Shown here: positions 2-49,635 of the stretch, in pieces | Layout: each line of letters opens with the position of its first letter | Numbering within the stretch: position 1 is the first letter of the stretch | NCBI GenBank assembly: GCA_023484515.1 | Contig: JAMDAY010000001.1 | Location: 758-64,757 of the forward strand | Reading direction: 5' to 3' | Source: Patescibacteria group bacterium | Lineage (GTDB): Bacteria > Patescibacteriota > Doudnabacteria > UBA920 | Length of the DNA: 64,000 nt | Translations under genes and position numbers: made by a program | The notes under the pieces: generated by a model | Seen by the model: the letters and a program-made list of their open reading frames with translations, nothing else | The model's database searches: none | What the model was told of the DNA's origin: nothing

Positions 2-2158
2 TCCGGCATTATTACCGTTTTAGCTGCCGCCTTTGACAATGTCGCCATTTCTTCCGTCCAGTTTAAGGCAGATAATATTAACTTAGGCCTGGAAGACATG
101 GCTTCTCCCTATATCACCTTCTTGGACACCGCTGCCTTAGCTAACGGCCCCCATACTCTTACGGCCACCGCCAAGGATAGTTCCGGGAATACGGCTAGTG
201 CCACAATTAATATTATCGTAAACAACCCGGTTCCCGACACCTATCGTGTCAATTCCGGCGGCTTGGCCTATATTGACAAGTCCGGCAAACAATGGAGCGC
301 TGATGCCAAATATACGGGCGGAAATACCTACCAGGTAACTTCCGCCATGGCCAGTACCGAAGACGATTCTCTATACCAGAATGAGCGGTTTGGCAACTTT
401 TCCTATGTTTTCCCCGTATCCAACGGTTCCTACCGGGTGACCTTGAAGTTTACCGAACTCTACTGGAATTATGCCAATGCCAGGAAGTTCAATGTCTCCA
501 TCAATAACACCCAAGTCCTCTCTAATTTTGACATCTTTGCGCAGGCCGGAGGCAAAAATATCGCTTTGGATAAATCTTTTACCGTTAACGTCACCAATGG
601 CCAGGTTGTCATTCAATTTACTACCTTAGTTGACAATGCGGCAGTTGTGGCGGTGGAGGTGGTAAAATCTTCATCTGATATTGATGCTGTACCTCCTTCT
701 GTACCCGCCGGCCTCTCCGCCGCCGCCGTTTCTTCCAGCCAGATTAATCTTTCTTGGAACGCCAGCACGGACAACGCTGGTGTTGCAGGTTATCTCGTAT
801 ATCGCAACGGTTTTCAAATTGCCACCACAACCGATACTTCATATTCCAATACCGGCTTAGCCCCTTCGGCCGTTTATTCTTTTACGGTTGCCGCTTATGA
901 TGCATCGGGTAATGTCTCAGCCCAACCCTCTTCTGTCTCTGCGGTTACTCAGGCAGCCGTTATTGCACCTAGTTTGTTGGTAATTCAAAACGGGGATTTT
1001 GAAAACGGAACCACCGGTTGGAATTATTACAACAACGGTTCCGGTTCGTTTAACACGACAGCCGGTTATCAAGGACAGTCAGCCAGCCTGGCAATTGCCA
1101 GCGCCGGGAACAATAACCAGCTTTATCAGGCAGGTATGACTTTGAAACCAAACACTTCTTACCGCCTGACATTTATGGCTAAGTCTTCCATAGGGGATGA
1201 TATGTCTGCATCGTTGTTTCAGCATGTTTTCCCATACGTAAATTACGGACTTAGCGGTAAATCTTTCGACTTGACGAATGCTTGGCAAAATTTTTCCGTA
1301 GATTTTACTACTGCCAATTTCAGTAATACAGTATCCGACGCCCGGATTAGCTTTATCCTGAACGGTTATGCCCAAGATAGGGAAGTTTACCAGATTGATA
1401 ACGTGACTTTAGTTCCGGTTGCCGTTGATGCCGTACCGCCCACGGTTAATTTTACATCTCCGCCAAATAATGCCACGATTTCAGGAACCGCTACTTTGTC
1501 CGTCTCTGCTTTGGATAATGTTGCGGTTGCCGGGGTTCAGTTTAAAATGGATGAGTCCGACTATGGCAGCGAAGATACCTCTGCTCCTTATGCTACATCC
1601 TTGGATACTACGGCATTGGCCAACGGTGTGCACATCATTACAGCTACGGCTCGGGATGCTTCCAATAACCAAGCTTCCGCTACGGTTAATATTCTGGTAA
1701 GCAATACCGTTTCAGCAAATAGCTTAATACGCCTTAATGCCGGAAGTGCTGCTTATACTGACCCCTCCGGCTACAAGTGGGAAGGGGATAAAAATTATTC
1801 TGGTGGCTATAACTATTACAATAACCTCCCCATAGCCAATACGGAAAGCGATCCTTTGTATCAGTCCCAGAGGTATGGCAATTTCTCTTATGCGCTAGAC
1901 GTGCCTAATGGCTCTTACAATGTTACTTTAAAGTTTGCTGAAATCTACTGGAATTATGCCAATGCCAGGAAGTTCAATGTCTCCATCAATAACACCCAAG
2001 TCCTTTCCAACTTTGACATCTTTGCTGCTTCAGGAGGCAAGAATATTGCCATAGACAAGACTTTTCCGGTTACGGTCATGGACGGAAAAGTTAATATCCA
2101 GTTTATCACTGTCTTGGATAATGCACTGGTCAGCGCTGTGGAGATTACGCCGCTGTAA
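2..2158 (+). CDS. Secreted/surface multidomain carbohydrate-binding protein (Ig-like, FN3, CBM4/9-like, two malectin-like domains); 5' end lies outside the window
   Basis: The frame is open from base 2, with no stop before the first Met at 98. Ig-like segments (…TATAKDSSGNTASATINIIVNN; …TATARDASNNQASATVNILVSN). FN3 (LSWNASTDNAGVAGYLVYRNG…YSFTVAAYDASGN). CBM4/9-like (IQNGDFENGTTGWNYY). Two malectin-like blocks (RVNSGGLAYID…YRVTLKFTELYW and RLNAGSAAYTD…YNVTLKFAEIYW). Confidence 0.75.
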   Translation, partial: SGIITVLAAAFDNVAISSVQFKADNINLGLEDMASPYITFLDTAALANGPHTLTATAKDSSGNTASATINIIVNNPVPDTYRVNSGGLAYIDKSGKQWSADAKYTGGNTYQVTSAMASTEDDSLYQNERFGNFSYVFPVSNGSYRVTLKFTELYWNYANARKFNVSINNTQVLSNFDIFAQAGGKNIALDKSFTVNVTNGQVVIQFTTLVDNAAVVAVEVVKSSSDIDAVPPSVPAGLSAAAVSSSQINLSWNASTDNAGVAGYLVYRNGFQIATTTDTSYSNTGLAPSAVYSFTVAAYDASGNVSAQPSSVSAVTQAAVIAPSLLVIQNGDFENGTTGWNYYNNGSGSFNTTAGYQGQSASLAIASAGNNNQLYQAGMTLKPNTSYRLTFMAKSSIGDDMSASLFQHVFPYVNYGLSGKSFDLTNAWQNFSVDFTTANFSNTVSDARISFILNGYAQDREVYQIDNVTLVPVAVDAVPPTVNFTSPPNNATISGTATLSVSALDNVAVAGVQFKMDESDYGSEDTSAPYATSLDTTALANGVHIITATARDASNNQASATVNILVSNTVSANSLIRLNAGSAAYTDPSGYKWEGDKNYSGGYNYYNNLPIANTESDPLYQSQRYGNFSYALDVPNGSYNVTLKFAEIYWNYANARKFNVSINNTQVLSNFDIFAASGGKNIAIDKTFPVTVMDGKVNIQFITVLDNALVSAVEITPL

Positions 2159-2937: not shown

Positions 2938-5160
2938 ATGTCCAACCAAACCAAACAATTCCATGTAAAAGGCATGCATTGCGCTTCGTGCGTAGCGGTT
3001 TTGGAACAGTCGTTAAAGAAAGTGTCGGGAGTTTCCGTAGCCAGTGTCAACCTTGCGGCGGAAGAAGCCACAGTAAAATATGATTCTGACCGGGTTTCGG
3101 AAAAAGACTTATCCGAGGCTGTTACGCAAGTCGGCTACCGGGCCGATTTTTTGGCCGCGTCCAAGTCCGGCGACATTTTGGAAGAAGAAAAACAAAAGGA
3201 ATTGTGGAATTTGCGCAACCTAGTCCTAGCCAGCCTTGTTTTGGGCGGCTTTATTTTATGGGGAAGCTTTCCGGTTTTGGCCGCAACCGCCCCCGCGTTT
3301 TTACGGAATTTTTGGACGCAATTTGCCTTGGCTGCCGTTGTGCAAATTTGGCCTGGCCTGGGGTTTTACCGCGCGGCCGCAAATTCGCTCCGCCACCGCA
3401 CCGCCAATATGGACACCTTGGTGGCGCTTGGCACGACCGTGGCTTTCGGCTATTCCGCTTTTGTGACTATTTTTCCTTCGCTGATTAAAAATGCGGGGAT
3501 GCAGCCAATGCCGTATTTTGACGTTTCCGCTTTGGTCATTGGCTTAATTTTGTTAGGAAGATATTTTGAGGCCAGGGCCAAGTCCGGCACCGGCGAGGCC
3601 ATAAAAAAATTAATCGGCTTGCAGGCCAGGACGGCCCGCCTAATTAAGGACGGCAGGGAAATTGACGTGCCCGCGGGCGAGGTAAAGGCGGGCGATATTT
3701 TGCGCGTGCGGCCCGGGGAAAAAATTCCGGTTGACGGCGTGGTTACGCAGGGGTATTCGGCGGTGGATGAATCCGCCGTGACCGGCGAAAGCCTGCCTGC
3801 GGACAAGGTGCCGGGAGACAAAGTTACGGGCGCAACCTTAAACAAAACCGGCAGTTTTCTCATGCAGGCCGAAAAAGTCGGGCAGGACACCATGCTTTCG
3901 CAAATTATCAAATTGGTGCAGGAGGCGCAAGGGTCCAAGGCGCCCATCCAAAGGATGGCCGACTCCATTTCTTCCTATTTCGTGCCGGTTGTCATAATGC
4001 TGGCCATACTGACTTTTATTATCTGGTATAATTTCGGGCCGCAGCCCCATTTGCTGCATGCGCTGCTGAACGCCGTGGCGGTTTTAATAATTGCCTGCCC
4101 TTGCGCAATGGGTTTGGCCACGCCCACGGCAATAATGGTCGGCGCCGGCAAAGGGGCGCAGGCCGGCATTTTAATCAAGGATGCGGCAAGCCTGGAAATT
4201 GCGCACAAGGTTAACGTAGTCATATTCGACAAGACCGGCACGCTTACGCTCGGCCGGCCGGAAGTGACGGATATTATTCCCATAGATGACGGCAAGGAGC
4301 GCGACCTGCTTATGATAGCCGCGTCCCTGGAGCGCGGCAGCGAGCATTCGCTGGCCGAGACCGTGGTCAAAATGGCGGAAAAGGAAAACCTGGTTTTAGG
4401 GGGCGTGGAAAATTTCCGCGCTTTGCCCGGTTTGGGCGTGGAAGGGTCTTTGGACGGCAAGCGCGTGACTTTGGGCAACCGCAAGCTGATGCAGCGGGAA
4501 AAAATAAATATTGCGCCCATAGAAGAAAAAATCCGAGATTTGGAAAACCACGGCAAAACCGTAATGATTTTAGGGCTAAACGGCAAAGCGGCCGGGCTTT
4601 TGGCCGTGGCGGATACGGTTAAGGACAGCGCAAGAACCGCGGTTAAAAAATTGCAGCAAATGGGAATAGAAGCCGTAATGGTTTCCGGGGACAACCAGCG
4701 CACGGCCGAGGCCGTGGCCAATGTCCTGGGGATTACCCGCGTGCTGGGCGAAGTGCTGCCGGACCAAAAAGAGCAGCAGGTCAGGCAAATCCAGGGCCAA
4801 GGCAGAGTGGCGGCCATGGTCGGGGACGGCATTAACGACGCGCCCGCCCTGGCGGCCGCCGACCTCGGCATAGCAATGGGCAGCGGCACGGACATAGCCA
4901 TGGAGTCCGCGGATATTACCCTGGTCAGCAAGGACCTTTCCAGCGTTGCCGCGGCCATAAACCTGTCCCGCCAGACCATGCGCATCATAAAACAAAACTT
5001 GTTTTGGTCTTTTGGTTACAATGCCTTGCTTATTCCCGTGGCTATGGGCCTGCTTTATCCGCCGTTCCATATTTTGCTAAACCCGGTATTCGCTTCCGCG
5101 GCCATGGCTTTTAGTTCCGTATCGGTAGTGTTAAATTCTTTGCGGTTAAAACGAATATGA
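2938..5160 (+). CDS. copA: Copper-translocating P1B-type ATPase
   Basis: N-terminal HMA motif [10 protein letters not shown]6 CPC motif ([10 protein letters not shown]). Phosphorylation site DKTGTLT. Hinge GDGINDAP. Length 740 aa. Confidence 0.92.
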
Positions 5161-6269: not shown

Positions 6270-6344
6270 AATAAGGTTTTTTTACAATTTTATCCAAATT
6301 ACAACACATTTTTATAAAAATCCCAAAAATATGTGGAAAAAGTC

Positions 6345-6372
6345 TTGCAAAATATTTTTTTAGTGCTATATT
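6345..6372 (+). promoter_or_regulatory. Candidate promoter TTGCAA-N16-TATATT
   Basis: The hexamers are read from the sequence. No plausible ORF lies downstream before the terminator at 6523-6566. Confidence 0.3.
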
Positions 6373-6522
6373 AAAAAAGATCGGGAAGGGTGTAAAAAAC
6401 CAGGAGGCCGACAAAGCCTCTTTAAATTTGTGCGATAGCCTGACAGAGCTACGGGATATAAAGTTTCTTATGTCCTGTTTTTCATTTCTTGCGGTTCCAA
6501 TTTTGGAAAGGCAAATACAAGA

Positions 6523-6566
6523 GCCCAAACATTGAGCAAAAGCTTTTTGTTTGGGCTTTTATATTT
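6523..6566 (+). terminator. Rho-independent terminator (GCCCAAAC…GTTTGGGC followed by TTTTATATTT)
   Basis: An 8-bp GC-rich stem with an 18-nt loop, followed by a U-tract on the plus strand. Confidence 0.5.
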
Positions 6567-6860
6567 GCCCTGGGTTATCTTTGACCGCTTAAAGTAAAAG
6601 AATAACCCGGGGCGAGCTTTAAAGGTCGACGCCTTAGGCTTTGCGTTTGGCAAAGCCGGCGGTTTTATGCCAACCTTCCGTTTCATTTTATCTTTTTTCT
6701 TGATAATTTTCAAGCGCAAGGCTGGTGGGTTCATAAGGAGGAGCAGCTAGTTTAGGCCCCCGGTTTGGGGCCAAGAATCAAAAAAGATCTTAGCTCCATA
6801 TTGGGGGCGTTCCCCCAAAGTAAAAGGGGTAAACATAATTAACAATTAATAAAAAATATT

Positions 6861-8069
6861 ATGAAAAAAATAATCATAAGCCTGTCCATAGTCGGCGCCA
6901 TTGCCGCAGTCGTAGTCTACGGCACCACGGCTTTCTTCAGCGATGAAGAAGTGTCGCAAAACAACACCTTCACCGCCGGCGCGATAGATTTAAAGGTGGA
7001 CAGCGAATGTTCGTATAACGGTTCTACTTCCACGCAATGCGGCACTTGGACAATGAAAGACTTAGAGCCTACTGCGGACCAGTTTTTTAAGTTTACGGAC
7101 GTTAAGCCTGGCGATTTTGGAGAAAATACCATTGGTCTGCAGGTCACCAATAACGACGCCTGGGTTTGCGCCGCTATTTCCGGCGTGACGGATTCGGAAA
7201 ATGGGCGGACAGAGCCTGAGGCCTTAGTTGACACGACCGACGACACTGGCGAACTGTCCAGTAAATTAGAAATGACCATTTGGAGGGATACTGATGGTGA
7301 CAATGTACAAGACTCGGAAGAAACAGTTTTGTATACTGGAAATCCCAAAGACCAAGTGTTAGCGCTTTATGACTCATCTACCCACACCGGCGCGTTAACC
7401 GGCGGTTCAACTGGGTATTTGGGTATTAAATGGGATCTTCCTGCAAATACCGGCAACGAAGTCCAAACTGACAGCATGACCGCGGACATTAGCTTTAACG
7501 TAGTGCAATCAAGAAACAATGACGATTTCCGCTGTGTTGCTCAAACACCGCAATATACGCTTGTGACGGGTGCTAGCCTAGTACGATCTTGGGATGCCGA
7601 AGCTAGACACGGAAAACTCGGTGCTGCTGATTGGGAATTAGGAATTGGTTTAAATACCCAAGGAGCAGACCAGCATAACAATCTAACAGGAACCGATCTA
7701 TATAATTGGCCGCAGGATGTAGCTATGCCATTTACCTTGACATATGACAAAAGCACCGGTGTAGCTTCTATGACGATAAGAGATGTGGAAGAAACATATA
7801 ATGTAGGAACCTCCGTGCCTGCAAATTCTAAATTGGCAATCTATCTCGGAGCTTCATCGGGAGTATCAGATAGCACCACTCTTCAAAATTTAGTTCTTAA
7901 CAGTACACCGATTAGCGGTAGTGTAGTTGCTACTGCTGGCGGTACTGCCAGTAACAATATAAGTGGTTTTGATTTCTCCCAAAGTTTTACTCTTACCGGT
8001 GAAGCGGTATTTAACTATACCGGTACGACCGGGTCAAGGCCTGGGTTTTCTCTAACCATAGGGCAATAA
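6861..8069 (+). CDS. TasA/camelysin-like secreted protein with a SipW-cognate class signal peptide
   Basis: The N-terminus MKKIIISLSIVGAIAAVVVYGTTAFFSDEEVSQNNTFTAGAIDLKVD matches the SipW-cognate signal-peptide pattern of TasA/CalY-family fibre proteins. It lies in a cluster with sipW. Confidence 0.7.
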   Translation: MKKIIISLSIVGAIAAVVVYGTTAFFSDEEVSQNNTFTAGAIDLKVDSECSYNGSTSTQCGTWTMKDLEPTADQFFKFTDVKPGDFGENTIGLQVTNNDAWVCAAISGVTDSENGRTEPEALVDTTDDTGELSSKLEMTIWRDTDGDNVQDSEETVLYTGNPKDQVLALYDSSTHTGALTGGSTGYLGIKWDLPANTGNEVQTDSMTADISFNVVQSRNNDDFRCVAQTPQYTLVTGASLVRSWDAEARHGKLGAADWELGIGLNTQGADQHNNLTGTDLYNWPQDVAMPFTLTYDKSTGVASMTIRDVEETYNVGTSVPANSKLAIYLGASSGVSDSTTLQNLVLNSTPISGSVVATAGGTASNNISGFDFSQSFTLTGEAVFNYTGTTGSRPGFSLTIGQ

Positions 8070-8079
8070 AATTAATTCT

Positions 8080-9360
8080 ATGAAAAAAATATTAATTAGC
8101 CTTAGCGTTATTGGGGTTGTGGCGGCGGCTGCGGTTATAGGGACGCAGGCTTTGTTTACCGACCAGGAAACTTCTTCGGGCAACGTGTTTACCGCAGGGT
8201 CTATAGACCTGAAAGTAGACCATTTGGTGCAGACTTATAATGGCGTGAATTGCAATACTTGCAGTGTGACGGTTGTGAGCGACGCAACCAACGAAGTAGT
8301 GGCAAAATCGGAAAACGGGACTGATCCGGTAACATTGCCGCATCCTGCCGTGTTGGTTAACCCGATTAATCCTGCCTGGACGGCAAATGTGCCTGGCGCA
8401 AGCTGGATTTGGGCGCAGAACCCTACGCCAGAAGCAGAATACGGCATAGACACAATCTATACCTTTGAAAAAACCTTTAACTGGATGGGTCCGGTGACTG
8501 GAGCGACTTTGGTGCTAAGCATCGGCGCAGACAACAGTTACGAGGTGTATTTGAACGGAAGCCATGTTACCGGTGACAATACGGAGCAGAATTATAATAC
8601 CGCTGGTCAAGACGTTGTTAGCGGCACGCCTATTTCCGACCATATCGTCCAAGGAGTAAATACTTTGCGTTTTGTGGTTAAAAATTGGGCCAGACCTGCC
8701 GGTCAAACCTGGCTTAATCCGGGCGGCTTAATTTATAAATTAACCATAGACGGTAATTGCGGAGATAGCGAATTCAAAAACCACTGCACCTTGTTCGGCG
8801 AGAAAAATTTGGGGCCGGATGACCATTTCTGGATAATAGACGACGTTAAGCCGGGGGATTATGGCACAAACCTTATTAGCCTGCATGTAACTAGCAACGA
8901 CGCTTATGCCTGCTTGTATACCGGCAATACCGCGGATAACGAAAACGACCTGGTTAATGCCGAAACCAAAGCAAACGATGACACCCCAAATGAAGGCGAA
9001 CTTTCCAAGTATCTTAATGTGATAGTCTGGCCGGATAATGGCGACGGTATCCATCAGGTTTCCGAAACTCCCATATACAACGGGCCGTTAAATGAGGAGA
9101 TGACTTCGCGATTGGCAATTGTTGGCGGTGGGACTGAGTACTTGGGCCTGGCATGGTGTGCTGGAGATCAGGATATAGACAGCGAGACAGGGACAATCTC
9201 TTGCGACGGTTCCGGCAGCCAGAATGACGCGCAGACCGACTCGTTTGTAGCGGACCTGACCGCTTATGCGGTGCAGCAGAGGAATAATGGGAATTTCTCT
9301 TGCAGTGACCTTCGGCAGGTTAATGGTACGGTTGTAACCGGCGAAGGATTAAACGATTAA
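8080..9360 (+). CDS. TasA/camelysin-like secreted protein paralog with an inserted beta-rich domain
   Basis: The N-terminus MKKILISLSVIGVVAAAAVIGTQALFTDQETSSGNVFTAGSIDLKVD is SipW-cognate. It shares blocks with the upstream paralog (DVKPGDYGTNLISLHVTSNDAYAC vs DVKPGDFGENTIGLQVTNNDAWVC; C-terminal …QQRNNGNFSC vs …QSRNNDDFRC). An insertion of about 180 aa lies between these blocks. Confidence 0.7.
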   Translation: MKKILISLSVIGVVAAAAVIGTQALFTDQETSSGNVFTAGSIDLKVDHLVQTYNGVNCNTCSVTVVSDATNEVVAKSENGTDPVTLPHPAVLVNPINPAWTANVPGASWIWAQNPTPEAEYGIDTIYTFEKTFNWMGPVTGATLVLSIGADNSYEVYLNGSHVTGDNTEQNYNTAGQDVVSGTPISDHIVQGVNTLRFVVKNWARPAGQTWLNPGGLIYKLTIDGNCGDSEFKNHCTLFGEKNLGPDDHFWIIDDVKPGDYGTNLISLHVTSNDAYACLYTGNTADNENDLVNAETKANDDTPNEGELSKYLNVIVWPDNGDGIHQVSETPIYNGPLNEEMTSRLAIVGGGTEYLGLAWCAGDQDIDSETGTISCDGSGSQNDAQTDSFVADLTAYAVQQRNNGNFSCSDLRQVNGTVVTGEGLND

Positions 9361-9503
9361 AGTTCCTTTTCCCGCCCGGCAGGCTGAAATATTTACTTAA
9401 TTATTTACTTTAATATTTAAGTAAATATTTACTTAAATCAGCCAAAGCCGGGCGGGAGGGGGAGGCTTTAATCTCTCTTGTTGATTTTTAAAGCAGCTTT
9501 GTC

Positions 9504-10076
9504 ATGAAAACCATTGGCAAAATAATTGAATATCTGCTTTATTTGGCAATTGCGGCTATTGCGGCTTTGGTGCTGGCCAGCGCTTTGCCCGTGCCGGGCG
9601 GGGTGAAGATTTTCGTGGTGCAGTCGGGCAGCATGGAGCCGGCCATTAAAACCGGCAGCGTGGTTATAGATATGCCGCAAGCCGCGTATAAAATTGGCGA
9701 CGTTATTACCTTCGGGCCATACAGCAAAGCCAAGCCCCCCGTAACCCACCGCGTTGCCGACTTCCGCCTGCAGTCCGGCCAGCCAATTTACATTACCAAG
9801 GGCGATGCCAACAACGCCGCGGATGCGCGGGAGGTTTTGCCGCGCGACGTAATCGGCAAAGTCAGGCTGGCCGTGCCTTACGCCGGCTATGCCGTGGCAG
9901 CCGCGAAAAAGCCTTTGGGTTTCGCCCTGCTTATTATAGTCCCGGCAGCCATTATTATTTTCAGCGAACTGAACAAGATTTGGACGGAAGTAAAAAGAAT
10001 GCGCGCGAAAAAGAAAGAATCCCCGCAGCCGGCAAAAGAGCCGCCGCAGCCGGCAGGCGAAAACCCCGGCTATTGA
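9504..10076 (+). CDS. sipW: Signal peptidase I, SipW type (archaeal/eukaryotic-like S26B)
   Basis: VVQSGSMEPAIKTGSVVID catalytic Ser block, VTHRV and GDANN motifs, and TM helices at both ends. The TGA stop lies inside the 85-bp repeat at 10070-10156. Confidence 0.85.
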   Translation: MKTIGKIIEYLLYLAIAAIAALVLASALPVPGGVKIFVVQSGSMEPAIKTGSVVIDMPQAAYKIGDVITFGPYSKAKPPVTHRVADFRLQSGQPIYITKGDANNAADAREVLPRDVIGKVRLAVPYAGYAVAAAKKPLGFALLIIVPAAIIIFSELNKIWTEVKRMRAKKKESPQPAKEPPQPAGENPGY

Positions 10077-10156
10077 TCTCCGCAAAATCAGTTGAACAAA
10101 TTTGGGCTTACTGAAAACAAAAATTATTCAAGATAATATGCGGGCCTCAATAGCCT
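10070..10156 (+). repeat. 85-bp dispersed repeat, copy 1 (copy 2 at 49335-49421, about 93% identical)
   Basis: tattgatctccgcaaaatcagttgaacaaatttgggcttactga[a/t]aacaaaaattattcaagataatatgcgggcc… occurs at both loci. It contains a possible promoter, TTACTG-N18-GATAAT. Confidence 0.8.
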
Positions 10157-10173
10157 AAGCAAAGCCGCGGAGC

Positions 10174-10227
10174 TTCTCCCCTCATAAGGGGAGATGTCGC
10201 GCCTGGCGCGACAGAGAGGTTGCAGCT
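10174..10227 (+). repeat. 54-bp direct repeat, left copy flanking the DUF559 gene (hairpins ctcccct…aggggag and gtcgcgcc-tg-gcgcgac)
   Basis: Nearly identical to 10662-10715. Each copy contains two short perfect palindromes. The left copy ends in GAGAGGttgcagctATG, so it supplies the ribosome-binding site for the DUF559 ORF. Confidence 0.85.
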
Positions 10228-10602
10228 ATGGTTAAAAGAATTATTTTTGAACCTTACTTAACCAATTCCCGCCAGCAAAGAAAGAGCCAAAATCCCTGGG
10301 AATCCAAATTATGGCAGCATTTACGGGCAAATAGATTTTATAATTTACATTTTAAGAGACAAGTTCAAATCGGATGCTATATTTTTGATTTTTCCTGCAG
10401 GAATAAAATGTTGTTAATTGAACTTGACGGTAGCCAGCATGGCGGGGAAATAATTTTAAGAAAAGACCGTGATAAGCAAAAATTTGCGGAAAAGCAAGGA
10501 TATAAAGTTTTAAGGTTCTGGAATAATGACGTTGACAAAAATACCCGAGGCGTTCTGGAAACTATTAAGGAAGCCTGTGGTATTAACACAACCTCTCCCT
10601 AA
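10228..10602 (+). CDS. DUF559 endonuclease-domain protein (Vsr-like / restriction endonuclease-like fold)
   Basis: The 124-aa product has the characteristic …CYIFDFSCRNKMLLIELDGSQHG…KDRDKQKFAEKQGYKVLRFWNNDV… pattern of DUF559 proteins. Confidence 0.75.
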   Translation: MVKRIIFEPYLTNSRQQRKSQNPWESKLWQHLRANRFYNLHFKRQVQIGCYIFDFSCRNKMLLIELDGSQHGGEIILRKDRDKQKFAEKQGYKVLRFWNNDVDKNTRGVLETIKEACGINTTSP

Positions 10603-10661
10603 CCCTCCCCTCAAAAGGGGAGGGGAGCTCCGCAGCCAGCCTTGGAACAGTGGCGGCAGCC

Positions 10662-10715
10662 TTCTCCCCCTATGAGGGGAGATGTCGCGCCTGGCGCGAC
10701 AGAGAGGTTGCAGCT
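10662..10715 (+). repeat. 54-bp direct repeat, right copy flanking the DUF559 gene
   Basis: Same sequence as 10174-10227 with two substitutions. Confidence 0.85.
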
Positions 10716-10748
10716 TAAGGAGAGAAAAGCGTTTAATTTTTATTTTCA

Positions 10749-13022
10749 ATGCCAAAAAAATCCCAAAAAATTAATATGCGCCAAACGCGGTGTTATGGGA
10801 AGAGTGAATCAGTTGTATCCACTGCGGACCAGAACATTAGCCGGCCAAACAGCGGCCAAACCCGCCCCATTTGCGCGCGTTTGAGTTTGTCGGAATTATT
10901 GCGAGAGGGTCGCCATGATTTGGGATTGGCGCGGCAACAAATACCGTTAAACCTCATTTTAAAAAAATTTGCCGCTGTGTCACTGGCCTGCGGCTTAATT
11001 GGCTCCTTTTTGCCCGCGGCTTTCCAGCCGACTGTTGCTTTTTACGACGACATAGAAACGTCTTCCGGCAACGCCATTGTCGCCGGCAGCCTGGATTTTT
11101 CTTTGGATTCGCCGGGCTTTGCGTTGTCGGAAATCTCCTTGGAGGCTGCGGCAACGTCAACTGTCTCCATTTTGGACCATAGCAGCCTGCCTTTCCAATA
11201 CAATGTCAGAAGCGAAGTAACCGGCGGCGACAGCGACTTTTGCAACGCGCTTATTTTGTCCGCCAGCTTAAACAACGCGCCGCAAGGCCAGGAACCTCTC
11301 TCGTCTTACGTTTCCCCGGACAACATCTTTTCCACCACCACTCCCACCTGGCAAATCCAGGCCGGTTTTGCCGCCGGAACGCCGGACTTTTTGCAGGACA
11401 AGCAATGCGGCTTTAAAATAATCTATACCGGCTGGCAGGATAATCTTGCTACCAGCACCGAAGGCTTTAGCGACATAGAAGAAACATCTTTTAACTTAAT
11501 CTACCGCACGCCTTTAAAGGTTAAGATTAACAAAGTTTACGCCAATCCCGATGTTGCCCACGGGATTAATACGGATAACGAATGGATAGAGCTTTATAAT
11601 ACAGACTCCGCGCCCGTAAATATTTCCAATTGGACCATAAGCGACAACAGTTCTACCGACACTCTGGCTTCCACCAGCCCGCTAATTATTCCGGCAGGCG
11701 GCTATGCCATTATAACCGACAAACCAAGTACCTGGGATTATTGGGAAATTCCCGGCAACGTGTTAAAGATTGCGCTTAACAGCCCTATTGGGAATGGATT
11801 GAACGATGGCGGCGATCTCCTGATATTGAAAGACAGCGACGGCAAGATTATGGATTGGATGAATTGGGGCGCCGGGACAACCAAGTATGGCGTAACTTTC
11901 TGGAACCCGGGCGTAACCGCTCCGGCAAAGGGTGATTTTCTCGCCCGAGTACCAAGCGGCACAGACACAGATTCGCCAGCTGACTGGCAGGGCTTAAAAG
12001 CGCCTTTTGCAACTTTGGACTATCCGGTTGGCGGGGAAGTGTGGTATGCCGGGCATACCGAAACTTTGCGCTGGACCGCGCATAATCCCAACGGCAGCGA
12101 CGACGAGTTAAAAATAGATTTATATTATTCCCGCGACAGCGGCGCGACTTGGGCAATCATTGTTACCGGCACGCCCAATACCGGAAGCTATGACTGGCGC
12201 ATCCCACTGTTTTTGGAAGACGGCAGCTACTACGTGCCTTCGCATATCTCCCGCATAAAAGTGGTGGCCACGGGCCCGGAAAACTTTATGGTGCAGTCCG
12301 AAGACAGCAGCGAAGATTTCTGCCCGCCCATAGACTATAATATGTTGACCCCGCAGGAGCAGGAACTGGTGGATTGGCTGCTGCAAACGGGCACAATCCC
12401 GGCGAGTGAAGTTATTTACGGCGGCATGCCCCAGGGATTTTCCGGCAGCAGTCTTGTTGATGCTGATCCGGCGAATGAAAATGTATTGAAGGAAGAACAA
12501 TCTACGCTGGAAAATATTGGTAATAATGAATTGCCGGCAACGGATATATTGGAAACGTCTAATGCGACGGAGCAGGCAGGCGAACCGCAGCCAGCGGAAG
12601 ATCTTGGCGAGGGCGAAGATGAATTATTGGCGCCAGACGGAAATGTTCAGCCAGCCGCAGATTTTCAAACTGGCCCTGCCAAAGATATAACTATGGAATC
12701 CCCAGAATCCCAAGAGCAGCCGGAACAGGCTACGGCAAAATCCGAAGCCATCCCGATTCCAGACCAGCCTGGCGCTGAAGACCAAAATATTCCTAACGGG
12801 CCGTCCGGCAATCCTGACGCTGTTTTGCCAAATCCCGAACAAGATCCGGCGCCGGAAATTCCTGTTTTAGAGCCGCAAACGGCCGCCCCAGAACCGGAAG
12901 CCGGCGCACCGAAAGAAAGTTCTCCTGCGGAAACCGTAACCCCTCCGGCTCCTTTGCCGGAAAGCCTGCCCCCGGAACCCGCTCCCGCAGCCGATCCCGT
13001 TGCCGCGGCAGAGGGGGAATAA
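10749..13022 (+). CDS. Large secreted TasA-like protein with a lamin-tail domain (LTD) and a Pro/Glu-rich acidic C-terminal tail; start codon uncertain
   Basis: After a hydrophobic segment (FAAVSLACGLIGSFLPAAFQ) comes the SipW-cognate-like block PTVAFYDDIETSSGNAIVAGSLDFSLD. The lamin-tail domain reads KINKVYANPDVAHGINTDNEWIELYNTDSAPVNISNWTISDN…IIPAGGYAIIT. The last ~200 aa are low-complexity and E/P/A-rich. The true start is probably downstream of 10749 (no ATG directly precedes the signal peptide). Confidence 0.65.
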   Translation: MPKKSQKINMRQTRCYGKSESVVSTADQNISRPNSGQTRPICARLSLSELLREGRHDLGLARQQIPLNLILKKFAAVSLACGLIGSFLPAAFQPTVAFYDDIETSSGNAIVAGSLDFSLDSPGFALSEISLEAAATSTVSILDHSSLPFQYNVRSEVTGGDSDFCNALILSASLNNAPQGQEPLSSYVSPDNIFSTTTPTWQIQAGFAAGTPDFLQDKQCGFKIIYTGWQDNLATSTEGFSDIEETSFNLIYRTPLKVKINKVYANPDVAHGINTDNEWIELYNTDSAPVNISNWTISDNSSTDTLASTSPLIIPAGGYAIITDKPSTWDYWEIPGNVLKIALNSPIGNGLNDGGDLLILKDSDGKIMDWMNWGAGTTKYGVTFWNPGVTAPAKGDFLARVPSGTDTDSPADWQGLKAPFATLDYPVGGEVWYAGHTETLRWTAHNPNGSDDELKIDLYYSRDSGATWAIIVTGTPNTGSYDWRIPLFLEDGSYYVPSHISRIKVVATGPENFMVQSEDSSEDFCPPIDYNMLTPQEQELVDWLLQTGTIPASEVIYGGMPQGFSGSSLVDADPANENVLKEEQSTLENIGNNELPATDILETSNATEQAGEPQPAEDLGEGEDELLAPDGNVQPAADFQTGPAKDITMESPESQEQPEQATAKSEAIPIPDQPGAEDQNIPNGPSGNPDAVLPNPEQDPAPEIPVLEPQTAAPEPEAGAPKESSPAETVTPPAPLPESLPPEPAPAADPVAAAEGE

Positions 13023-13073
13023 TAGGATTTGCCCTATTTTTTAACAATCTAAAATCTTTATTTCTTCAAGATT

Positions 13074-14405
13074 GTGGCTATAAAAAAAATCTTGCAAAAA
13101 ATATTTTGGTTTTCCCCGGCAATGTTGACACTGGCTTTATGGCCGTCTTTGGTAATGGCAATCTCCCCCGGCTTGACTGTGGAATTTCAAAATTCCCCTT
13201 TACCGTTATTTTCCCAAACCAACTTTATGCCCGGGGAAAGCGCAGTGGCCTGGTTTAAGGTGGTCAACAATACTGCGCAAGGCCAGGACATTGCCGTGGA
13301 GGCAGTGGATTATCCGGGTTACGCCTTTGGCCAGCCCCGGCCGCACGACATAGCGGCCAACGACTTGTCCCGCGCCTTGTTCGTGGTTATTAGCGAACAA
13401 AACGGCGCGGATTTATACGGCGGCGCTGCCGGACAAAAAACCTTGTACGACTTTTACCAGGCCGGAGAAGTTGTTATTGCCAATCTGGACGGAGGCAGCA
13501 GCCAAACCTACGAAATAGAAATAAGCTTTCCCCTGGAAAAAAATAACGGCTGGCAAGAAAAAACCACTAGTTTTAAATTGGCAGCCGGCTTTGCAGGCAC
13601 AGAGGATCAAATAGATTCCGGCGGCGGCACGGTATCTACCTTTAGCGGCGGCGGGATAATCCAGGCGTGCTCAATTACCGAATCTGCCATTCAAGTTAGC
13701 AATGTAGGTACGGGCAGCGCCACAGTTTCCTGGACCACTTCCCAGGCAACCGATGGCAGCGTTATATATGCCGCAGCCAGCGAGAATTATAATTTTGACT
13801 TATCATTGCCTCCAAAATACGGATATGCCTATTCCATTTCGGAAAATTTGCAAACCGCAAGCCATTCGCTTGTTTTAAGCGGTTTGCTGCCCGGCACGGC
13901 CTATTATTTTCGGGTTTCTTCCTGCGCCGGCCAGGCGTTAAGTTTGGAGCATGAATTCGCGACGGGCGCCGTGGCAGGGGACAGTGCGGCCAATATTTTG
14001 GAAAAAGATTATTTGCCCCCACTTGAAACAAATAGTTCCAGCCGGCCTCCCAAAACATCCGGCGGCCAGGGGGAAGTTTTAGGCGAAAGTACCGCCACAC
14101 CGGCAAATTTAACCGCGCTTTTGGGCGAGAGTGCCGGAATTTGCAAGCCTGCAAATTGGCGGCAATTGGGATACGCAGCGTTGGCGGTATTATTAGTTTT
14201 AGGGTTCTTAATATTCAGGCGTAAAAATTCGTTTTACCAAACGCTGTTTGCGGCGGGGTTATTTCTGGCCGCAATTATTTGGTGGTGGTTCCAGCCGTGC
14301 GCGAGCCGCAGCTGGCACATTCCCGCAATATCTTTCTTGATAATTCTGCTGGTTTGGCCGTTTTTTATTGCGACTAAGGAAATCCCCAAAACCGGCAACC
14401 AATAA
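13074..14405 (+). CDS. Secreted protein with an FN3 domain and C-terminal TM helices (GTG start at 13074, or ATG at 13122)
   Basis: Signal peptide MLTLALWPSLVMA. FN3-like block (VSNVGTGSATVSWTTSQATDGSV…YYFRVSSCAG). Two hydrophobic C-terminal helices. Confidence 0.6.
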   Translation: MAIKKILQKIFWFSPAMLTLALWPSLVMAISPGLTVEFQNSPLPLFSQTNFMPGESAVAWFKVVNNTAQGQDIAVEAVDYPGYAFGQPRPHDIAANDLSRALFVVISEQNGADLYGGAAGQKTLYDFYQAGEVVIANLDGGSSQTYEIEISFPLEKNNGWQEKTTSFKLAAGFAGTEDQIDSGGGTVSTFSGGGIIQACSITESAIQVSNVGTGSATVSWTTSQATDGSVIYAAASENYNFDLSLPPKYGYAYSISENLQTASHSLVLSGLLPGTAYYFRVSSCAGQALSLEHEFATGAVAGDSAANILEKDYLPPLETNSSSRPPKTSGGQGEVLGESTATPANLTALLGESAGICKPANWRQLGYAALAVLLVLGFLIFRRKNSFYQTLFAAGLFLAAIIWWWFQPCASRSWHIPAISFLIILLVWPFFIATKEIPKTGNQ

Positions 14406-14489: not shown

Positions 14490-15839
14490 TTGCAGTTTAA
14501 AACTATGTCCGTAAAGACTAAAAAAGCCGCTTTCTCTTTTTTAATTATTGCCAACCTGGCCATAATTATCTTTTTTTGGGGATGTTACTCAGGTCCGTGG
14601 TTTAGTATGGGCCGGGGAGACCCTTATATAGCCTTAGGCCGGTTGGCGGGGCTGCTGGCGGTATTTCTTGTCTTGCTGCAACTGTTGTTTATGAGCCGCG
14701 TGCGCTTTATGGAATCGGCTTTCGGTTTGGACAAGCTTTCCCTGCTGCATCATTATAACGGAGAAATTTTTACGATTTTTGTGATTGCTCATCCCGTATT
14801 TTTAACCGTTGGTTACGCCTTAAACGACAGGCTTACATTTTTTAGCCAGCTTTGGGATCTTGTCTTGCATTACGAAGACGTTTCCAGTGCGGCCATAGGG
14901 TTGGTTTTGCTCGTTTTTATTGCCGCATATTCAGTCATTTTTGTTTTCCGCCATTGGAATTATGAATGGTGGTATCGCACGCATTTACTGGCCTACCTTG
15001 CCGTATTATTGGCTTTTGGCCATCAGACCGGCCTGGGCGGGGATTTTGTCGGGCATCCGTTTTTTTCCGGATATTGGATATTACTCTACGCCGCGGTTTT
15101 TGCCGGTTTGTTGCTTTATAGGTTTATGCGCCCTGTTTGGTATTTTTACAAGTATGGTTTTTATGTCAAAGAGGTCAAGCCGGAAAGCGAAAATGTGACT
15201 TCCGTTTATATAGGCGGCAAGAATTTGGACAAGTTTAAGGTTTTAGCCGGGCAGTTTATGATCTTCAGGTTTTTGGGCAAGGGGTGGTGGCAGCAGGCGC
15301 ATCCTTTTTCCCTGTCTATGTATCCCGGCCAAGACTTGCTGCGGATATCCGTCAAAAATGTCGGGGATTATACTTCCCATATTAAAAATTTAAAGCCCGG
15401 GACCAAAGTGTTGATAGACGGGCCTTATGGGATTTTTACGCGCAAGGTTTTGTCGGGGGAGAAAATTTTGTTTATTGCAGGCGGCATTGGCATTACGCCC
15501 ATCCGTTCCTTAATTGAGCAGTTCGGCAAGGAAGGCAAAAATATGGTTTTGTTGTATGCCAACCGGACCGAGCAAGACATTACTTTTAAACGAGAGCTGC
15601 GTGATTTGACCCAACAATACCGGCTGGCAGTTAACCATATACTAAGCCGCCAGCAGGACTGGGCAGGGGAGAAAGGAAGGATTGACGAAGAAAAGATAAA
15701 AAAACTGGCGCCGGATTTTTTGCAGCGGGAAGTTTATTTGTGCGGACCGTTGCCAATGACCAAAGATGTAGTAAAAATATTAATTGATCTTGGCATGAAC
15801 CGTTCAAAGATTCATTTTGAAAATTTTTCTCTGCAATAA
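14490..15839 (+). CDS. Ferric reductase/NOX-family flavocytochrome (6-TM ferric-reductase domain plus FAD/NAD(P)H-binding domain)
   Basis: His-containing TM helices, the FAD-binding motif HPFSLS, NAD-binding GGIGITP, and CGP near the C-terminus. Confidence 0.8.
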   Translation: MQFKTMSVKTKKAAFSFLIIANLAIIIFFWGCYSGPWFSMGRGDPYIALGRLAGLLAVFLVLLQLLFMSRVRFMESAFGLDKLSLLHHYNGEIFTIFVIAHPVFLTVGYALNDRLTFFSQLWDLVLHYEDVSSAAIGLVLLVFIAAYSVIFVFRHWNYEWWYRTHLLAYLAVLLAFGHQTGLGGDFVGHPFFSGYWILLYAAVFAGLLLYRFMRPVWYFYKYGFYVKEVKPESENVTSVYIGGKNLDKFKVLAGQFMIFRFLGKGWWQQAHPFSLSMYPGQDLLRISVKNVGDYTSHIKNLKPGTKVLIDGPYGIFTRKVLSGEKILFIAGGIGITPIRSLIEQFGKEGKNMVLLYANRTEQDITFKRELRDLTQQYRLAVNHILSRQQDWAGEKGRIDEEKIKKLAPDFLQREVYLCGPLPMTKDVVKILIDLGMNRSKIHFENFSLQ

Positions 15840-37816: not shown

Positions 37817-40189
37817 TCAACTTAATATGCTGTGCTCTATAGGGACCGGAGGGTTTTTTGATTTCCATTTTTTTGCGAACCAGCGGGCGGTAATCTGGTA
37901 TTGCAGCCAGCCGGTAATCCATACTACGCAGACAGTCATGAACAATGACCAAAAAGTCGGACGGCGCAAATCAAAAAAGTTGGAAAGGGCGGGGTTAAGC
38001 AAAACAGTGGCTAAAAATATAATGCCAACGCCGGCCAAAGCAAACAATACTTTTTCCTGTTTTTTTGAAGTTTTTATTCCGTGCGCCAGCGGCGCCAGCA
38101 CAAAGAACCAGTAGCCCAAGGCAATAAGGGCCAGCACTACCAGAATGTTGGAGCCGGCGGTTTTAAGGTAATCCGGCCCCAGCCAAAACACGGCCGCCGA
38201 AGCCAAAGCGGTTAAGAGCCCCATGGCCAGGGAGAAAGGAAGGATTTTCCGGAAAAAACCTTTTTCAGGGCTGAATCCGTCTTTGGGCGCGGGAAAAATT
38301 GCCCAGTAGAACATGGGCAGCCAAATGACAAAATAATTTATAATGGTAGTGTTGCGCGGCGAAAGGGGATAGGTGTAGCCCATTATTGCCAAGGCCAGGA
38401 ACACGCATAAGGCCACTGCCACTTTATTTAAAAAGATACTGGCTACCAGTTCAATGTTGGTTATAATGGTTTCGGCCAAATCCACGCCGTCTGGCAAGGC
38501 GGCAAAACTGTTGTTCATTAGCACTATCTGCGCGATTTGCCTGGTAGCGCCGGCGCCGTCAAACATGGCTACTCCCAAATCCGCGTTTTTAATGGCTAGG
38601 GCGTCATTGGCGCCGTCGCCGACCATGGCCGTGAAGCCTTTAGTTTTTAGGATGGAAATAATTTGTTCCTTTTGGCCGGGTTTGATGCGGGCGAACAAAT
38701 GGTAAGCGGGCACGCGCTCTTCAAACGCTTCGTTGTCCCATTTTTCCATTTCCGCGCCGGTAACCACCATGTCCGAATGTTTTATGCCGGACTGCCGGGC
38801 AATGGCCTGCACGGTTTGCGGGTTGTCGCCCGACAGTACGTAAAGGCGCACGCCGCGGCTTTGGAAAAAGCCAATTATCTCTTTGGTGCCGGGGCGCAAA
38901 GGGTTGCCCAGCACGAAAAGCGCGAGCGGGTGCAGAACTGGTTGGCTTAACGGAGAAGCGCCGGCCTGGTCAGCCTGCCCCAGCAAAACCAGGCGTTTGG
39001 CTTGCGGCGCAAAATTTGCAAGTTGGCTTTCCAGCCATTTTTTTTCGTCTCCTTCCGACAAAAAAGGAACCAGCATATCCGGCGCGCCTACCGCCACGGT
39101 TAAATTTTTATCATTAATTTTCAAGGAAGCAATGCCATACTTGCGGGAAGAAGAAAAGGGAAGGTAGTCAAAAACCGAACCGGCAAAGGATGCCCGGACA
39201 GAGGAGGTTAAGGCCTTAATGGTGTTGGAATCGTCGCGGTTGGCCTGTACGTATCCGCAGAGGGATTGCTCCACCAGAGCGCGGTCGACGTTACCATACA
39301 TAACCACTTGTTCCAGAACCGGCTTATTTTCCGTAAGCGTCCCGGTCTTGTCTACGCATAAATTTTTTATGCGGCCAAGCTTTTCCGTGGCGTTAATTTC
39401 CTGGAGCAAGACCTGTTTTTTCAGGAGCCGTACCGCGCCGTAAGCGAAAAAGACGGTGGTGGCCAATATTAGCCCTTGGGGAACCAGCGTGCCGGTTAAG
39501 GCCGCGATATCTTTGACAATGTATACCATAAGTTCATGACCGGTTAAGCCGTGGATTACCACATACAGCACAATGGCCAGCAGCAGGTAGGTCATATACT
39601 TGATAAAAGCATTCAAAGTCTGCTGAATGGGGCTTAAGTTTAGCGTATACTGTTTTATTTTTTCCGTCATTTTGGACACAAAACTGTCCTGCGGCTTTAC
39701 GGTCACGCGTAAAATTCCCGAGCCGGCCGTAACAAAGCTGCCGGCTAAAACATTGTCGCTTTGTTTTTTATGGATATTGTCCGATTCGCCCGTAAGCAGC
39801 GCTTCGTTGACTTCCAAGCCGAAACTTTCCTCCAGTTCACCGTCGGCCGGAATTTGGTCGCCGAGGGAAATTTTTATCAGATCGCCGGCAGACAAATCCT
39901 CCAACAGAGCCGTTTCTTCTTGGCTGCGGGAATTGAGGCGGGTAATTTTGGGGGTCATCAATATCTGCAATTGTTCCAGGGCTATTTTGGCGCGCAAGTC
40001 CTGGATAATGCCAATAACCACGTTTAAAATTAAGACAATGGCTAAAAACAGCGCTTCGTGCGCTTCTTTGAACGCCAAAAGCAGCAAGGTCACTATCAGG
40101 AAGATCACATTCACCAAAGTGACCGCATTCTGGTAAGCGACCGGTTTTATGTGTTTGGCCGTTGCTTTGTAAGCGGCGCGGATATTCAT
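37817..40189 (-). CDS. Cation-transporting P-type ATPase (not heavy-metal type; P2/P3-like)
   Basis: DKTGTLTENKP, MVGDGANDALAIKNADLGVAM, and a TM4 PQGL in place of PEGL. There is no HMA domain or CPC motif. Length 790 aa. Confidence 0.8.
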   Translation of the reverse strand: MNIRAAYKATAKHIKPVAYQNAVTLVNVIFLIVTLLLLAFKEAHEALFLAIVLILNVVIGIIQDLRAKIALEQLQILMTPKITRLNSRSQEETALLEDLSAGDLIKISLGDQIPADGELEESFGLEVNEALLTGESDNIHKKQSDNVLAGSFVTAGSGILRVTVKPQDSFVSKMTEKIKQYTLNLSPIQQTLNAFIKYMTYLLLAIVLYVVIHGLTGHELMVYIVKDIAALTGTLVPQGLILATTVFFAYGAVRLLKKQVLLQEINATEKLGRIKNLCVDKTGTLTENKPVLEQVVMYGNVDRALVEQSLCGYVQANRDDSNTIKALTSSVRASFAGSVFDYLPFSSSRKYGIASLKINDKNLTVAVGAPDMLVPFLSEGDEKKWLESQLANFAPQAKRLVLLGQADQAGASPLSQPVLHPLALFVLGNPLRPGTKEIIGFFQSRGVRLYVLSGDNPQTVQAIARQSGIKHSDMVVTGAEMEKWDNEAFEERVPAYHLFARIKPGQKEQIISILKTKGFTAMVGDGANDALAIKNADLGVAMFDGAGATRQIAQIVLMNNSFAALPDGVDLAETIITNIELVASIFLNKVAVALCVFLALAIMGYTYPLSPRNTTIINYFVIWLPMFYWAIFPAPKDGFSPEKGFFRKILPFSLAMGLLTALASAAVFWLGPDYLKTAGSNILVVLALIALGYWFFVLAPLAHGIKTSKKQEKVLFALAGVGIIFLATVLLNPALSNFFDLRRPTFWSLFMTVCVVWITGWLQYQITARWFAKKWKSKNPPVPIEHSILS

Positions 40190-47995: not shown

Positions 47996-48053
47996 ACTCC
48001 AATCCGGCAATTTGTAATGTAATTTGATACTTGTAATTTGGAACTTTTTAGTT

Positions 48054-49274: not shown

Positions 49275-49334
49275 TATTAATCGCAGTTATGCATATGGAG
49301 CGGATAAACTGGCAAGCAAATAAGCTAATTAGTT

Positions 49335-49421
49335 TGCTATTGATCTCCGCAAAATCAGTTGAACAAATTTGGGCTTACTGATAACAAAAATTATTCAAGA
49401 TAATATGCGGGCCTTAATAGT
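49335..49421 (+). repeat. 85-bp dispersed repeat, copy 2 (see 10070-10156)
   Basis: Direct sequence identity with 10070-10156. Confidence 0.8.
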
Positions 49422-49635
49422 CCTTGGCGTGCCTTAATGGTTTTTATCAGAGACAATCTTTCTTTAGTTTAGGCTGGTGATAATTTTAATTGGATAATTT
49501 AAAAATCATTTATTTCAGATGGGGACCATTCACCGTAATCAACCGCTTATCTATACCAATCATTCCCATAAATAACAAGATTCCCAACACCTATTTGTAT
49601 ATTTGTTAAGATTTGTATATTTGCGGCTACTACAC

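Follow-up and report, generated by a model that had tools for sequence, protein, structure and literature searches.

We describe a gene cassette in a 64,000-nt stretch of DNA (the window) from a Patescibacteria metagenome-assembled genome (MAG; Candidate Phyla Radiation, CPR), which we read, with a probability of about 0.6, as the Patescibacteria version of a TasA-superfamily donor-strand-exchange fibre system. The cassette encodes two subunits, a SipW-like signal peptidase, a protein with a lamin-tail domain (LTD protein) and a membrane-anchored protein with a fibronectin type III (FN3) domain. Four of the proteins have a jelly-roll domain of the TasA/CalY type, and three of the four combine it with a SipW-type leader and a homologue of the TasA donor strand. 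It is highly probable that the products are SipW-processed proteins of the TasA superfamily. That they form a donor-strand-exchange fibre is moderately likely, and here we infer the polymerisation. The specific end roles of the LTD protein and the anchored protein are tentative, and we hold them at less than even odds.

We scanned the 156 open reading frames (ORFs) of the window that are 80 aa or longer. The five same-strand ORFs of the cassette were present in the ORF list with the coordinates given by an earlier sequence-only reading of this DNA (Table 1). That reading had named neither the DUF559 gene between the peptidase and LTD genes, nor the choice-of-anchor W domain of subunit 1, nor the Ig-like domain of the LTD protein. 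In a motif and phmmer scan, the motif A-[FL]-[FY]-x-D-x-E…G-[AS]-[IL]-D-[LF] occurred in only three of the 156 ORFs (AFFSDEEVSQNNTFTAGAIDL, ALFTDQETSSGNVFTAGSIDL and AFYDDIETSSGNAIVAGSLDF), all located no more than 2.6 kb from the peptidase gene. This upholds the earlier description of three motif-bearing proteins around a SipW-type peptidase. The sequence upstream of the start codons is AT-rich and has no Shine-Dalgarno motifs, in agreement with the suggestion of a Shine-Dalgarno-poor genome. The NCBI entry for the exact 402-aa protein (subunit 1) reads 'MAG: CalY family protein [Patescibacteria group bacterium]', and the entry for the large ORF is a 748-aa 'lamin tail domain-containing protein'.

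The relation of the subunits to TasA was assessed with curated models and with family alignments. Against TIGR04088, the model of the SipW-cognate signal peptide (cut-off 19), subunit 1 scored 25.7 and subunit 2 scored 22.8. Against PF12389 (Peptidase_M73, TasA/camelysin; threshold 22.5), subunit 1 was above the threshold at 24.3 and subunit 2 below it at 16.7, and neither the LTD protein nor the anchored protein matched. For the family comparison, an alignment of 85 subunit homologues was compared with a TasA/CalY reference alignment composed of TasA (sequence checked against 8aur/5of1) and six TasA/CalY genes from Bacillus cereus-group plasmids. The hhalign comparison resulted in a probability of 96.3% (E 1.6e-9) over 180 columns, with 22% identity over the aligned columns; the alignment covered residues 3-234 of TasA and 1-218 of subunit 1. 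This full-domain match argues that the core of the subunits, and not only the leader, is homologous to that of TasA/CalY. Against the single TasA sequence, hhalign aligned only the signal peptide and the N-terminal strand, and searches of PDB sequences with three of the proteins returned nothing relevant. The window proteins did not match NF046066, the Bacillus subtilis TasA equivalog (cut-off 450), at E ≤ 0.1, and their relatives reached 14-15 bits, far below the cut-off; the window proteins are not TasA orthologues. The AlphaFold2 (AF2) model of subunit 1 has a predicted local distance difference test score (pLDDT) above 90 at residues 44-230 and below 50 at residues 26-39. The structural match to TasA presumably falls on the N-domain of this model, the matched part of which was not reported.

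By BLASTP, the two subunits are 51% identical over residues 1-68 and 36% identical over the core, which confirms their paralogy. The insert in one paralogue, put earlier at about 180 aa, measured about 170 residues and lies in subunit 2 between the N-terminal strand and the core. It weakly matched the N-terminal sandwich of alpha-L-rhamnosidase (E 4e-7, far below the cut-off), and the paralogue at the same position in a related locus (L005) has a DUF642/choice-of-anchor C domain in place of the insert. The C-terminus of subunit 1 matched the choice-of-anchor W model (NF041928) with 81 bits against a cut-off of 45. On these matches, the subunits carry predicted lectin-like modules, a ConA-like C-terminal domain in subunit 1 and an inserted, sugar-binding-like sandwich in subunit 2.

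The segment that would act as the donor strand stands directly after the signal-peptide cleavage site in both subunits and in the LTD protein, and is absent from the anchored protein. In the hhalign comparison, where this segment aligned with TasA residues 25-47, A24 of subunit 1 paired with TasA A27 (the -1 residue), F26 with F29 and F37 with F39. The donor strand of the TasA fibre comprises residues 28-38, with hydrophobic contacts made by F29, I32 and F39 (Bohning et al. 2022, PMC9674648), and the chain in 8aur starts at TasA A28. Residues 24-48 are the most conserved stretch of the 85-member subunit alignment, with D28, E30, S32, N35, G40, D43 and L44 invariant; this conservation continues for over 20 residues past the cleavage site, much further than cleavage itself would need. 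In the single-chain AF2 models, the segment is the only part of the LTD protein with pLDDT below 50, and it is likewise unstructured in subunit 1. Such disorder in monomer models is compatible with a strand that would become ordered only in the groove of a neighbour.

The 190-aa signal peptidase matched TIGR02228 (archaeal/ER-type signal peptidase I) at 111 bits (cut-off 51.85). NF046067, the equivalog model of Bacillus SipW, matched it from end to end, but at 115.8 bits and thus below the cut-off of 190. Among five peptidase orthologues, S43 (in SGSMEP), H82 (THR), D101 (GDAN) and D107 are invariant. A phmmer search of PDB sequences aligned the peptidase with human SEC11A (7p2p, E 3.9e-9), placing S43 on the catalytic Ser (Ala in the mutant entry 9rjb) and H82 on the His of 'VHRV'. 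Hydrophobic or transmembrane (TM) segments were found at both ends, at residues 3-40 and 130-160. The presence of the ER-type Ser/His/Asp set, aligned to SEC11A, bears out the earlier assignment to S26B and its catalytic architecture. Judged by its sequence, the enzyme is a SipW-type Ser/His peptidase and not orthologous to the SipW of Bacillus. A 21-nt tandem duplication at the 3' end of its gene (window 10014-10055) encodes KESPQPA/KEPPQPA and gives a C-terminal extension missing from the orthologues.

The LTD protein belongs to a family of about 100 full-length homologues with 40-48% identity, nearly all from Patescibacteria. It matched PF00932 (lamin tail) with 62.4 bits against a threshold of 34.3, and the Ig-like Kre9_KNH model with 23.0, just under the cut-off of 24.6. 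Its tail of 198 aa is composed of 17.7% P and 14.6% E, with 21% D+E and 2% K+R; both the lamin-tail domain and the roughly 200-aa acidic, P/E-rich tail had been recognized from the sequence. The LTD family aligned with the subunit family at 97.7% over 163 columns and with TasA/CalY at 96.1% (hhalign). Some LTD homologues match PF12389, and one of them is named 'TasA family protein'. The AF2 model of the protein has a pLDDT of 89.2. The earlier proposal of a SipW-cognate signal peptide on this 757-aa protein stands in that the motif and a TasA-like N-domain align by profile, but TIGR04088 gave no match even at E ≤ 1. In the profile searches suggested by the same reading, both TIGR04088 and PF12389 match, but TIGR04088 is silent on the 757-aa protein, and PF12389 covers only the part formed by the signal peptide and N-terminal strand. 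No TapA-type model matched the LTD protein, as NCBIfam and Pfam returned only the LTD and the sub-cut-off Kre9_KNH. Its likeness to TapA would be functional only and lies in an accessory protein of larger size that carries a strand of the TasA type.

The anchored protein matched Pur_ac_phosph_N with 38.1 (cut-off 30) and fn3 with 29 (cut-off 25), and database names for its family are either FN3-based ('fibronectin type III domain-containing protein [Patescibacteria group bacterium]') or hypothetical. It had been described as a secreted FN3 protein with C-terminal anchors; the fn3 domain and the C-terminal hydrophobic segments were found, but its TasA-like N-domain had been missed. With hhalign, the anchored family aligned with the N-domain of the LTD family at 97.8% (E 7.7e-13), and with the TasA/CalY core at 85.4% (E 5.8e-6) over TasA residues 38-221. 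A word-indexed homologue search with the FN3 protein yielded four matches, and an exhaustive phmmer search with its N-domain yielded 573 cluster representatives, in which the domain is always N-terminal and the proteins have about 400-500 aa. The cleavage site, between VMA and ISPGLTVEF, maps to about TasA residue 40, and the mature protein consequently has no donor strand. C-terminal TM segments were found in 81 of 85 relatives of the anchored protein, none of which has the N-terminal motif, and in none of the 85 subunit homologues or the 61 LTD homologues. These comparisons place the FN3 protein as a fourth member of the TasA superfamily, one in which the donor strand is missing. With such a member, the likely architecture is that of an anchored pilus and no longer that of a matrix fibre released from the cell.

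The conservation of the cassette was assessed with hidden Markov models (HMMs) for five domain types over 86 loci. A genome scan with a peptide pattern derived from the LTD had given 80 loci, of which about 60 held unrelated LTD proteins (Chloroflexota, archaea and others) and were set aside for synteny. About 15 loci share the order of one to four TasA-like genes, sipW, an LTD protein with a TasA-like N-domain, and the anchored protein, with the anchored gene immediately 3' of the LTD gene in about 15 loci. Besides the window, L003-L006, L009, L010, L012-L017, L019, L024 and L044 have the complete cassette; in L007, L011 and L018, it lies at a contig end and is partial. The same order was found in four contigs with LTD homologues, from Ca. 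Zambryskibacteria, Ca. Nealsonbacteria and two JGI metagenomes (one contig of 922 kb). The lineages in the record titles are Paceibacterota, Campbellbacteria (complete genome CP011215), Portnoybacteria, CPR3 and bins labelled Saccharibacteria. Adjacency to sipW, whose conservation in related MAGs the sequence-only reading had left to be checked, holds in all related loci that have sufficient sequence. Fused sipW-LTD ORFs of about 440 aa, followed by the anchored protein, occur in L022 (9308-10639), L023 (9269-10582, Chisholmbacteria) and L031 (9239-10576), and a short LTD-only protein follows sipW in L020, L032, L036 (Berkelbacteria) and L045. In some lineages, the LTD thus seems to be linked directly to the peptidase.

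From these data we propose the following mechanism. SipW would cleave after Ala24 in subunits 1 and 2 (between GTTA and FFSD, the position of TasA A27/A28) and after A97 in the LTD ORF, and cleavage would free the N-terminal strand. The freed strand would then insert into the beta-sandwich of the next subunit and build a fibre, the shaft of which would consist of subunits 1 and 2 and display the ConA-like domain and the sugar-binding-like sandwich. The LTD protein, with its single copy, bulky LTD and Ig domains and acidic tail, may donate the first strand, as has been proposed for TapA (PMC9674648), and would be TapA-like or tip-like at the distal end. The anchored protein would accept a strand and could not donate one; as a pure acceptor, it would end polymerisation and tie the fibre to the membrane. 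The role of the fibre would likely be adhesion to surfaces or to host-cell glycans.

Several observations weigh against this fibre. In subunit 1 and ten relatives, PF12389 covers only the signal peptide and the first strand (profile positions of about 4-73 out of 196), and for this reason the existing 'TasA/CalY family' labels derive from the N-terminus alone. The subunit family profile had no match among PDB sequences. Foldseek with the two-domain model of subunit 1 did not retrieve TasA; the TasA fold proposed earlier for the subunits is backed by the profile match over the whole domain (96.3%) but not by this structural search. A counterpart of the C-terminal interface of TasA (residues 239-261) is absent from the window proteins, and the bulky extra domains beside the donor strand could hinder packing as in TasA. 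The anchored family aligned with the subunit family at 17%, a weak though co-linear match, and the link between the two is transitive, via the LTD family and TasA/CalY. The end roles of the LTD and anchored proteins are drawn from domain logic only, and the DUF559 insertion described below may uncouple both genes from sipW in this genome.

The same limited reach of the curated TasA models, which match only the part with the signal peptide and N-terminal strand, would fit SipW-processed surface or secreted lectin-like adhesins that do not polymerise. Here, the N-terminal segment would be a recognition or export element and the TasA-like sandwich a scaffold for carbohydrate-binding modules. The bulky lectin-like domain on each subunit also suits such adhesins, as do giant VWA/PA14/CLIPPER adhesins 3' of the cassette in related loci, which suggest a general surface-protein island. 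We nevertheless consider them unlikely. The N-terminal segment, conserved for over 20 residues past the cleavage site, lines up with the donor strand of TasA, hydrophobic contacts included, and the homology of the core to TasA/CalY covers the entire domain. An acceptor-only, membrane-anchored member in strict synteny is hard to explain without strand exchange between subunits.

Released, bundling biofilm-matrix fibres as in Bacillus subtilis, with the LTD and FN3 proteins merely co-located surface proteins, would agree with TasA as the closest characterised relative, with the lack of a C-terminal anchor in the subunit homologues, and with an LTD protein that is acidic and partly of low complexity, like matrix components. 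However, the LTD and FN3 proteins both have a TasA-type domain, their genes follow sipW directly in fixed order with frames that usually overlap, and SipW and LTD are fused in L022, L023 and L031. The shared domain, the fixed order and the fusions argue for a functional unit, and we regard released matrix fibres as rather improbable. The Pfam name Peptidase_M73 and the JGI name 'predicted ribosomally synthesized peptide with SipW-like signal peptide' would point to camelysin-type metalloproteases or to precursors of ribosomally synthesised peptides (RiPP), but such labels derive from the N-terminal signal model alone, and this assignment is very improbable. HExxH occurs in none of the four proteins, and we rejected the metalloprotease; the RiPP precursor was rejected because the products are multi-domain beta-sandwich proteins of 400-750 aa with confident folds and not short peptides. 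The donor-strand-exchange fibre is our preferred reading.

Between sipW and the LTD gene, the window has a DUF559 gene enclosed by two direct repeats of 55 nt (10173-10227 and 10661-10715; 95% identity), each of which includes two palindromes, TCTCCCCTCATAAGGGGAGA and TGTCGCGCCTGGCGCGACA. A DUF559 gene at this junction was found in the window only. In every other locus, sipW either overlaps at its 3' end with the following gene or adjoins it, and because the unit splits this junction, it looks like a recent small mobile insertion.

Table 1. Features of the cassette (window positions in nt; residues of the respective protein)
Feature	Position	Strand	Residues	Remarks
Subunit 1	6861..8069	+		402 aa; TasA-like
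Subunit 1, signal peptide	6861-6932		1-24	
Subunit 1, donor-strand-like segment	6933-6989		25-43	
Subunit 1, TasA-like jelly-roll core	6990-7556		44-232	
Subunit 1, C-terminal ConA-like domain	7560-8036		234-392	'choice-of-anchor W'
Subunit 2	8080..9360	+		426 aa; paralogue of subunit 1
Subunit 2, signal peptide and donor-strand motif	8149-8211 (motif)			As in subunit 1
Subunit 2, inserted beta-sandwich	8227-8739		~50-220	~170 aa
Subunit 2, TasA-like core			221-424	
SipW-like signal peptidase I	9504..10076	+		190 aa; ER/archaeal type
Peptidase, catalytic Ser	9630-9632		Ser43	
Peptidase, catalytic His	9747-9749		His82	
Peptidase, catalytic Asp	9804-9806		Asp101	
DUF559 insertion	10173..10715	+		Outside the conserved cassette
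DUF559 gene	10228..10602	+		124 aa; PF04480, 112 bits; Vsr-like endonuclease fold
LTD protein	10749..13022	+		757-aa ORF; NCBI start 10776 gives 748 aa
LTD protein, TM segment			69-92	Preceded by a basic N-terminal tail
LTD protein, SipW-type motif	11037-11099		97-117	
LTD protein, TasA-like N-domain	up to 11483		up to ~245	
LTD protein, lamin-tail domain	11517-11870		257-374	
LTD protein, Ig-like domain	12024-12233		426-495	
LTD protein, acidic tail	12426-13019		560-757	P/E/A-rich
Anchored FN3 protein	13074..14405	+		443 aa; alternative start 13122
Anchored protein, signal peptide			to A29	Ordinary
Anchored protein, TasA-like N-domain	13161-13598		~30-175	Without donor strand
Anchored protein, FN3 domain	13689-13964		206-297	Gly-rich linker before, linker after
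Anchored protein, C-terminal TM segments	14157-14387		362-383, 413-438	

The surroundings of the cassette were also recorded. The 590 nt 5' of subunit 1 (window 6270-6860) contain no convincing gene, apart from an 88-aa antisense ORF given by one pipeline, and no Rfam match, and may be the promoter or regulatory region of the cassette. A promoter and terminator scan was uninformative, and an Rfam search of the window found three tRNAs only. A few kb 5' of the cassette, with ATPase and phosphoesterase genes between, window 98-2158 encodes a carbohydrate-binding surface protein of 686 aa with two Malectin domains and CBM_4_9, Big_7 and fn3 domains. Directly 3' of the cassette, window 14490-15839 encodes a 449-aa protein with a ferric-reductase-like TM domain and FAD- and NAD-binding domains (NOX/FRE-like). 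Two P-type ATPases are encoded at window 2938-5160 and 37817-40189, the first with an HMA domain and a cupredoxin neighbour in the source contig; together with Nramp and MgtE-like transporters (window 48024-50889), they form a metal-transport-rich neighbourhood.

In related loci, giant surface proteins of 1,500-2,000 aa lie 3' of the cassette in L003 (9365-14365), L005 (14118-20336) and L006 (13840-18435). Those of L005 and L006 have VWA and PA14, CLIPPER or DUF642 domains, and that of L003 had no Pfam match. CAP-domain proteins are present in L003 and L005, and the giant and CAP-domain neighbours suggest a larger surface-protein island. On the 201-kb JGI contig of L004, csgG-, csgF- and csgE-like genes (3202-4924, minus strand) lie about 1.8 kb 5' of the cassette, with three small ORFs between. 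Curli secretion genes are diderm components and would be unexpected if this contig came from a Patescibacterium.

To our knowledge, all cultivated Patescibacteria live attached to host cells, and we know only of type IV pili as experimentally tied to their attachment so far. Host attachment in this group is poorly understood, and the cassette is a candidate for an adhesion fibre other than type IV pili, not surprising in kind. If the donor-strand-exchange reading is true, a lectin-decorated fibre of the TasA type would provide a second candidate organelle for adhesion, made of parts that are concrete and open to testing, and the TasA superfamily would gain a bacterial system with an explicit anchor or terminator subunit. 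It would also help explain how TasA-like fibres start, end and are fixed to the cell, a question posed in Bacillus as well. A broader claim is doubtful, though conceivable: that Patescibacteria possess, beside type IV pili, a second and undescribed class of cell-anchored pilus, with a lectin-displaying TasA-type shaft, a start at an LTD tip, an end at an acceptor-only C-terminal anchor, and SipW cleavage that couples export to polymerisation, as a candidate organelle of episymbionts for attachment to host glycans. If the proteins do not polymerise, the locus would be a group of SipW-processed surface lectins of modest interest.

The occurrence of the TasA/CalY family in Patescibacteria is already known, since Wang et al. 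2022 (PMC9245690) list Patescibacteria among the phyla with PF12389 homologues, and the NCBI annotation pipeline PGAP already names these proteins. The parallel drawn earlier with the Bacillus TasA system outside Bacillus holds for the TasA/CalY profile match and the SipW-type peptidase, but its novelty does not, as PMC9245690 and the NCBI name 'CalY family' precede it. Our literature search on SipW, TasA, camelysin or LTD in CPR/Patescibacteria found no description of the cassette, and the retrieved literature on Patescibacteria attachment treats type IV pili and the type IV secretion system, with no SipW/TasA except for one line in PMC9245690. The conserved four-part cassette, the lectin-fused subunits, the TasA-like protein bearing an LTD and the anchored member without a donor strand appear to be undescribed so far.

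The closest characterised system is tapA-sipW-tasA of Bacillus subtilis (PDB 8aur/5of1). Compared with it, matches of the window proteins to curated TasA models are confined to about 50-70 N-terminal positions, and the TasA and SipW equivalogs stay far below their cut-offs. The window subunits are fused to lectin-like domains and occur as two to four paralogues, the accessory protein combines a full TasA-like core with LTD, Ig domain and acidic tail and does not have the TapA fold, the membrane-anchored member without a donor strand has no Bacillus counterpart, and the gene order differs. The closest N-terminal sequence is that of CalY/camelysin of the Bacillus cereus group, in which GGGT[YF]AYFSD[KQR][EV]V[ST][NQ]N[ST]FAAGTLDL resembles YGTTAFFSDEEVSQNNTFTAGAIDL of subunit 1. 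However, CalY is a single-domain protein of about 197 aa, whereas the window proteins are twice as large and have extra domains, and outside the N-terminal signal and donor-strand region the relation is seen at profile level only.

The archaeal bundling pili AbpA/AbpB of Pyrobaculum (PDB 7ueg; PMC9245690) are far more distant in sequence, their operon has no dedicated signal peptidase, and they have no lectin, LTD or anchor modules. With the chaperone-usher pili (PapH, FimH), the analogy is functional only: a strand-exchange polymer, the ends of which are set by subunits without a donor strand or a usable groove, and an adhesin of the lectin type; the proteins are unrelated, and here there is no chaperone, usher or outer membrane. 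In architecture, the closest system is that of the archaeal Tafi pili of Haloarcula/Natrinema, a likeness drawn from the published description and not from sequence. Their proposed parts are major and minor pilins of the TasA superfamily, the signal peptidase TafD, the tip TafC and the anchor TafF with one TM helix and a jelly-roll domain (PMC12337348). The Tafi system is archaeal, often Tat-dependent and without LTD, and the TafF helix is N-terminal, whereas the anchor of the present cassette is C-terminal, behind FN3. According to the AbpX preprint, accessory sets of this kind, with pilins, peptidase, tip and anchor, are common in the TasA superfamily.

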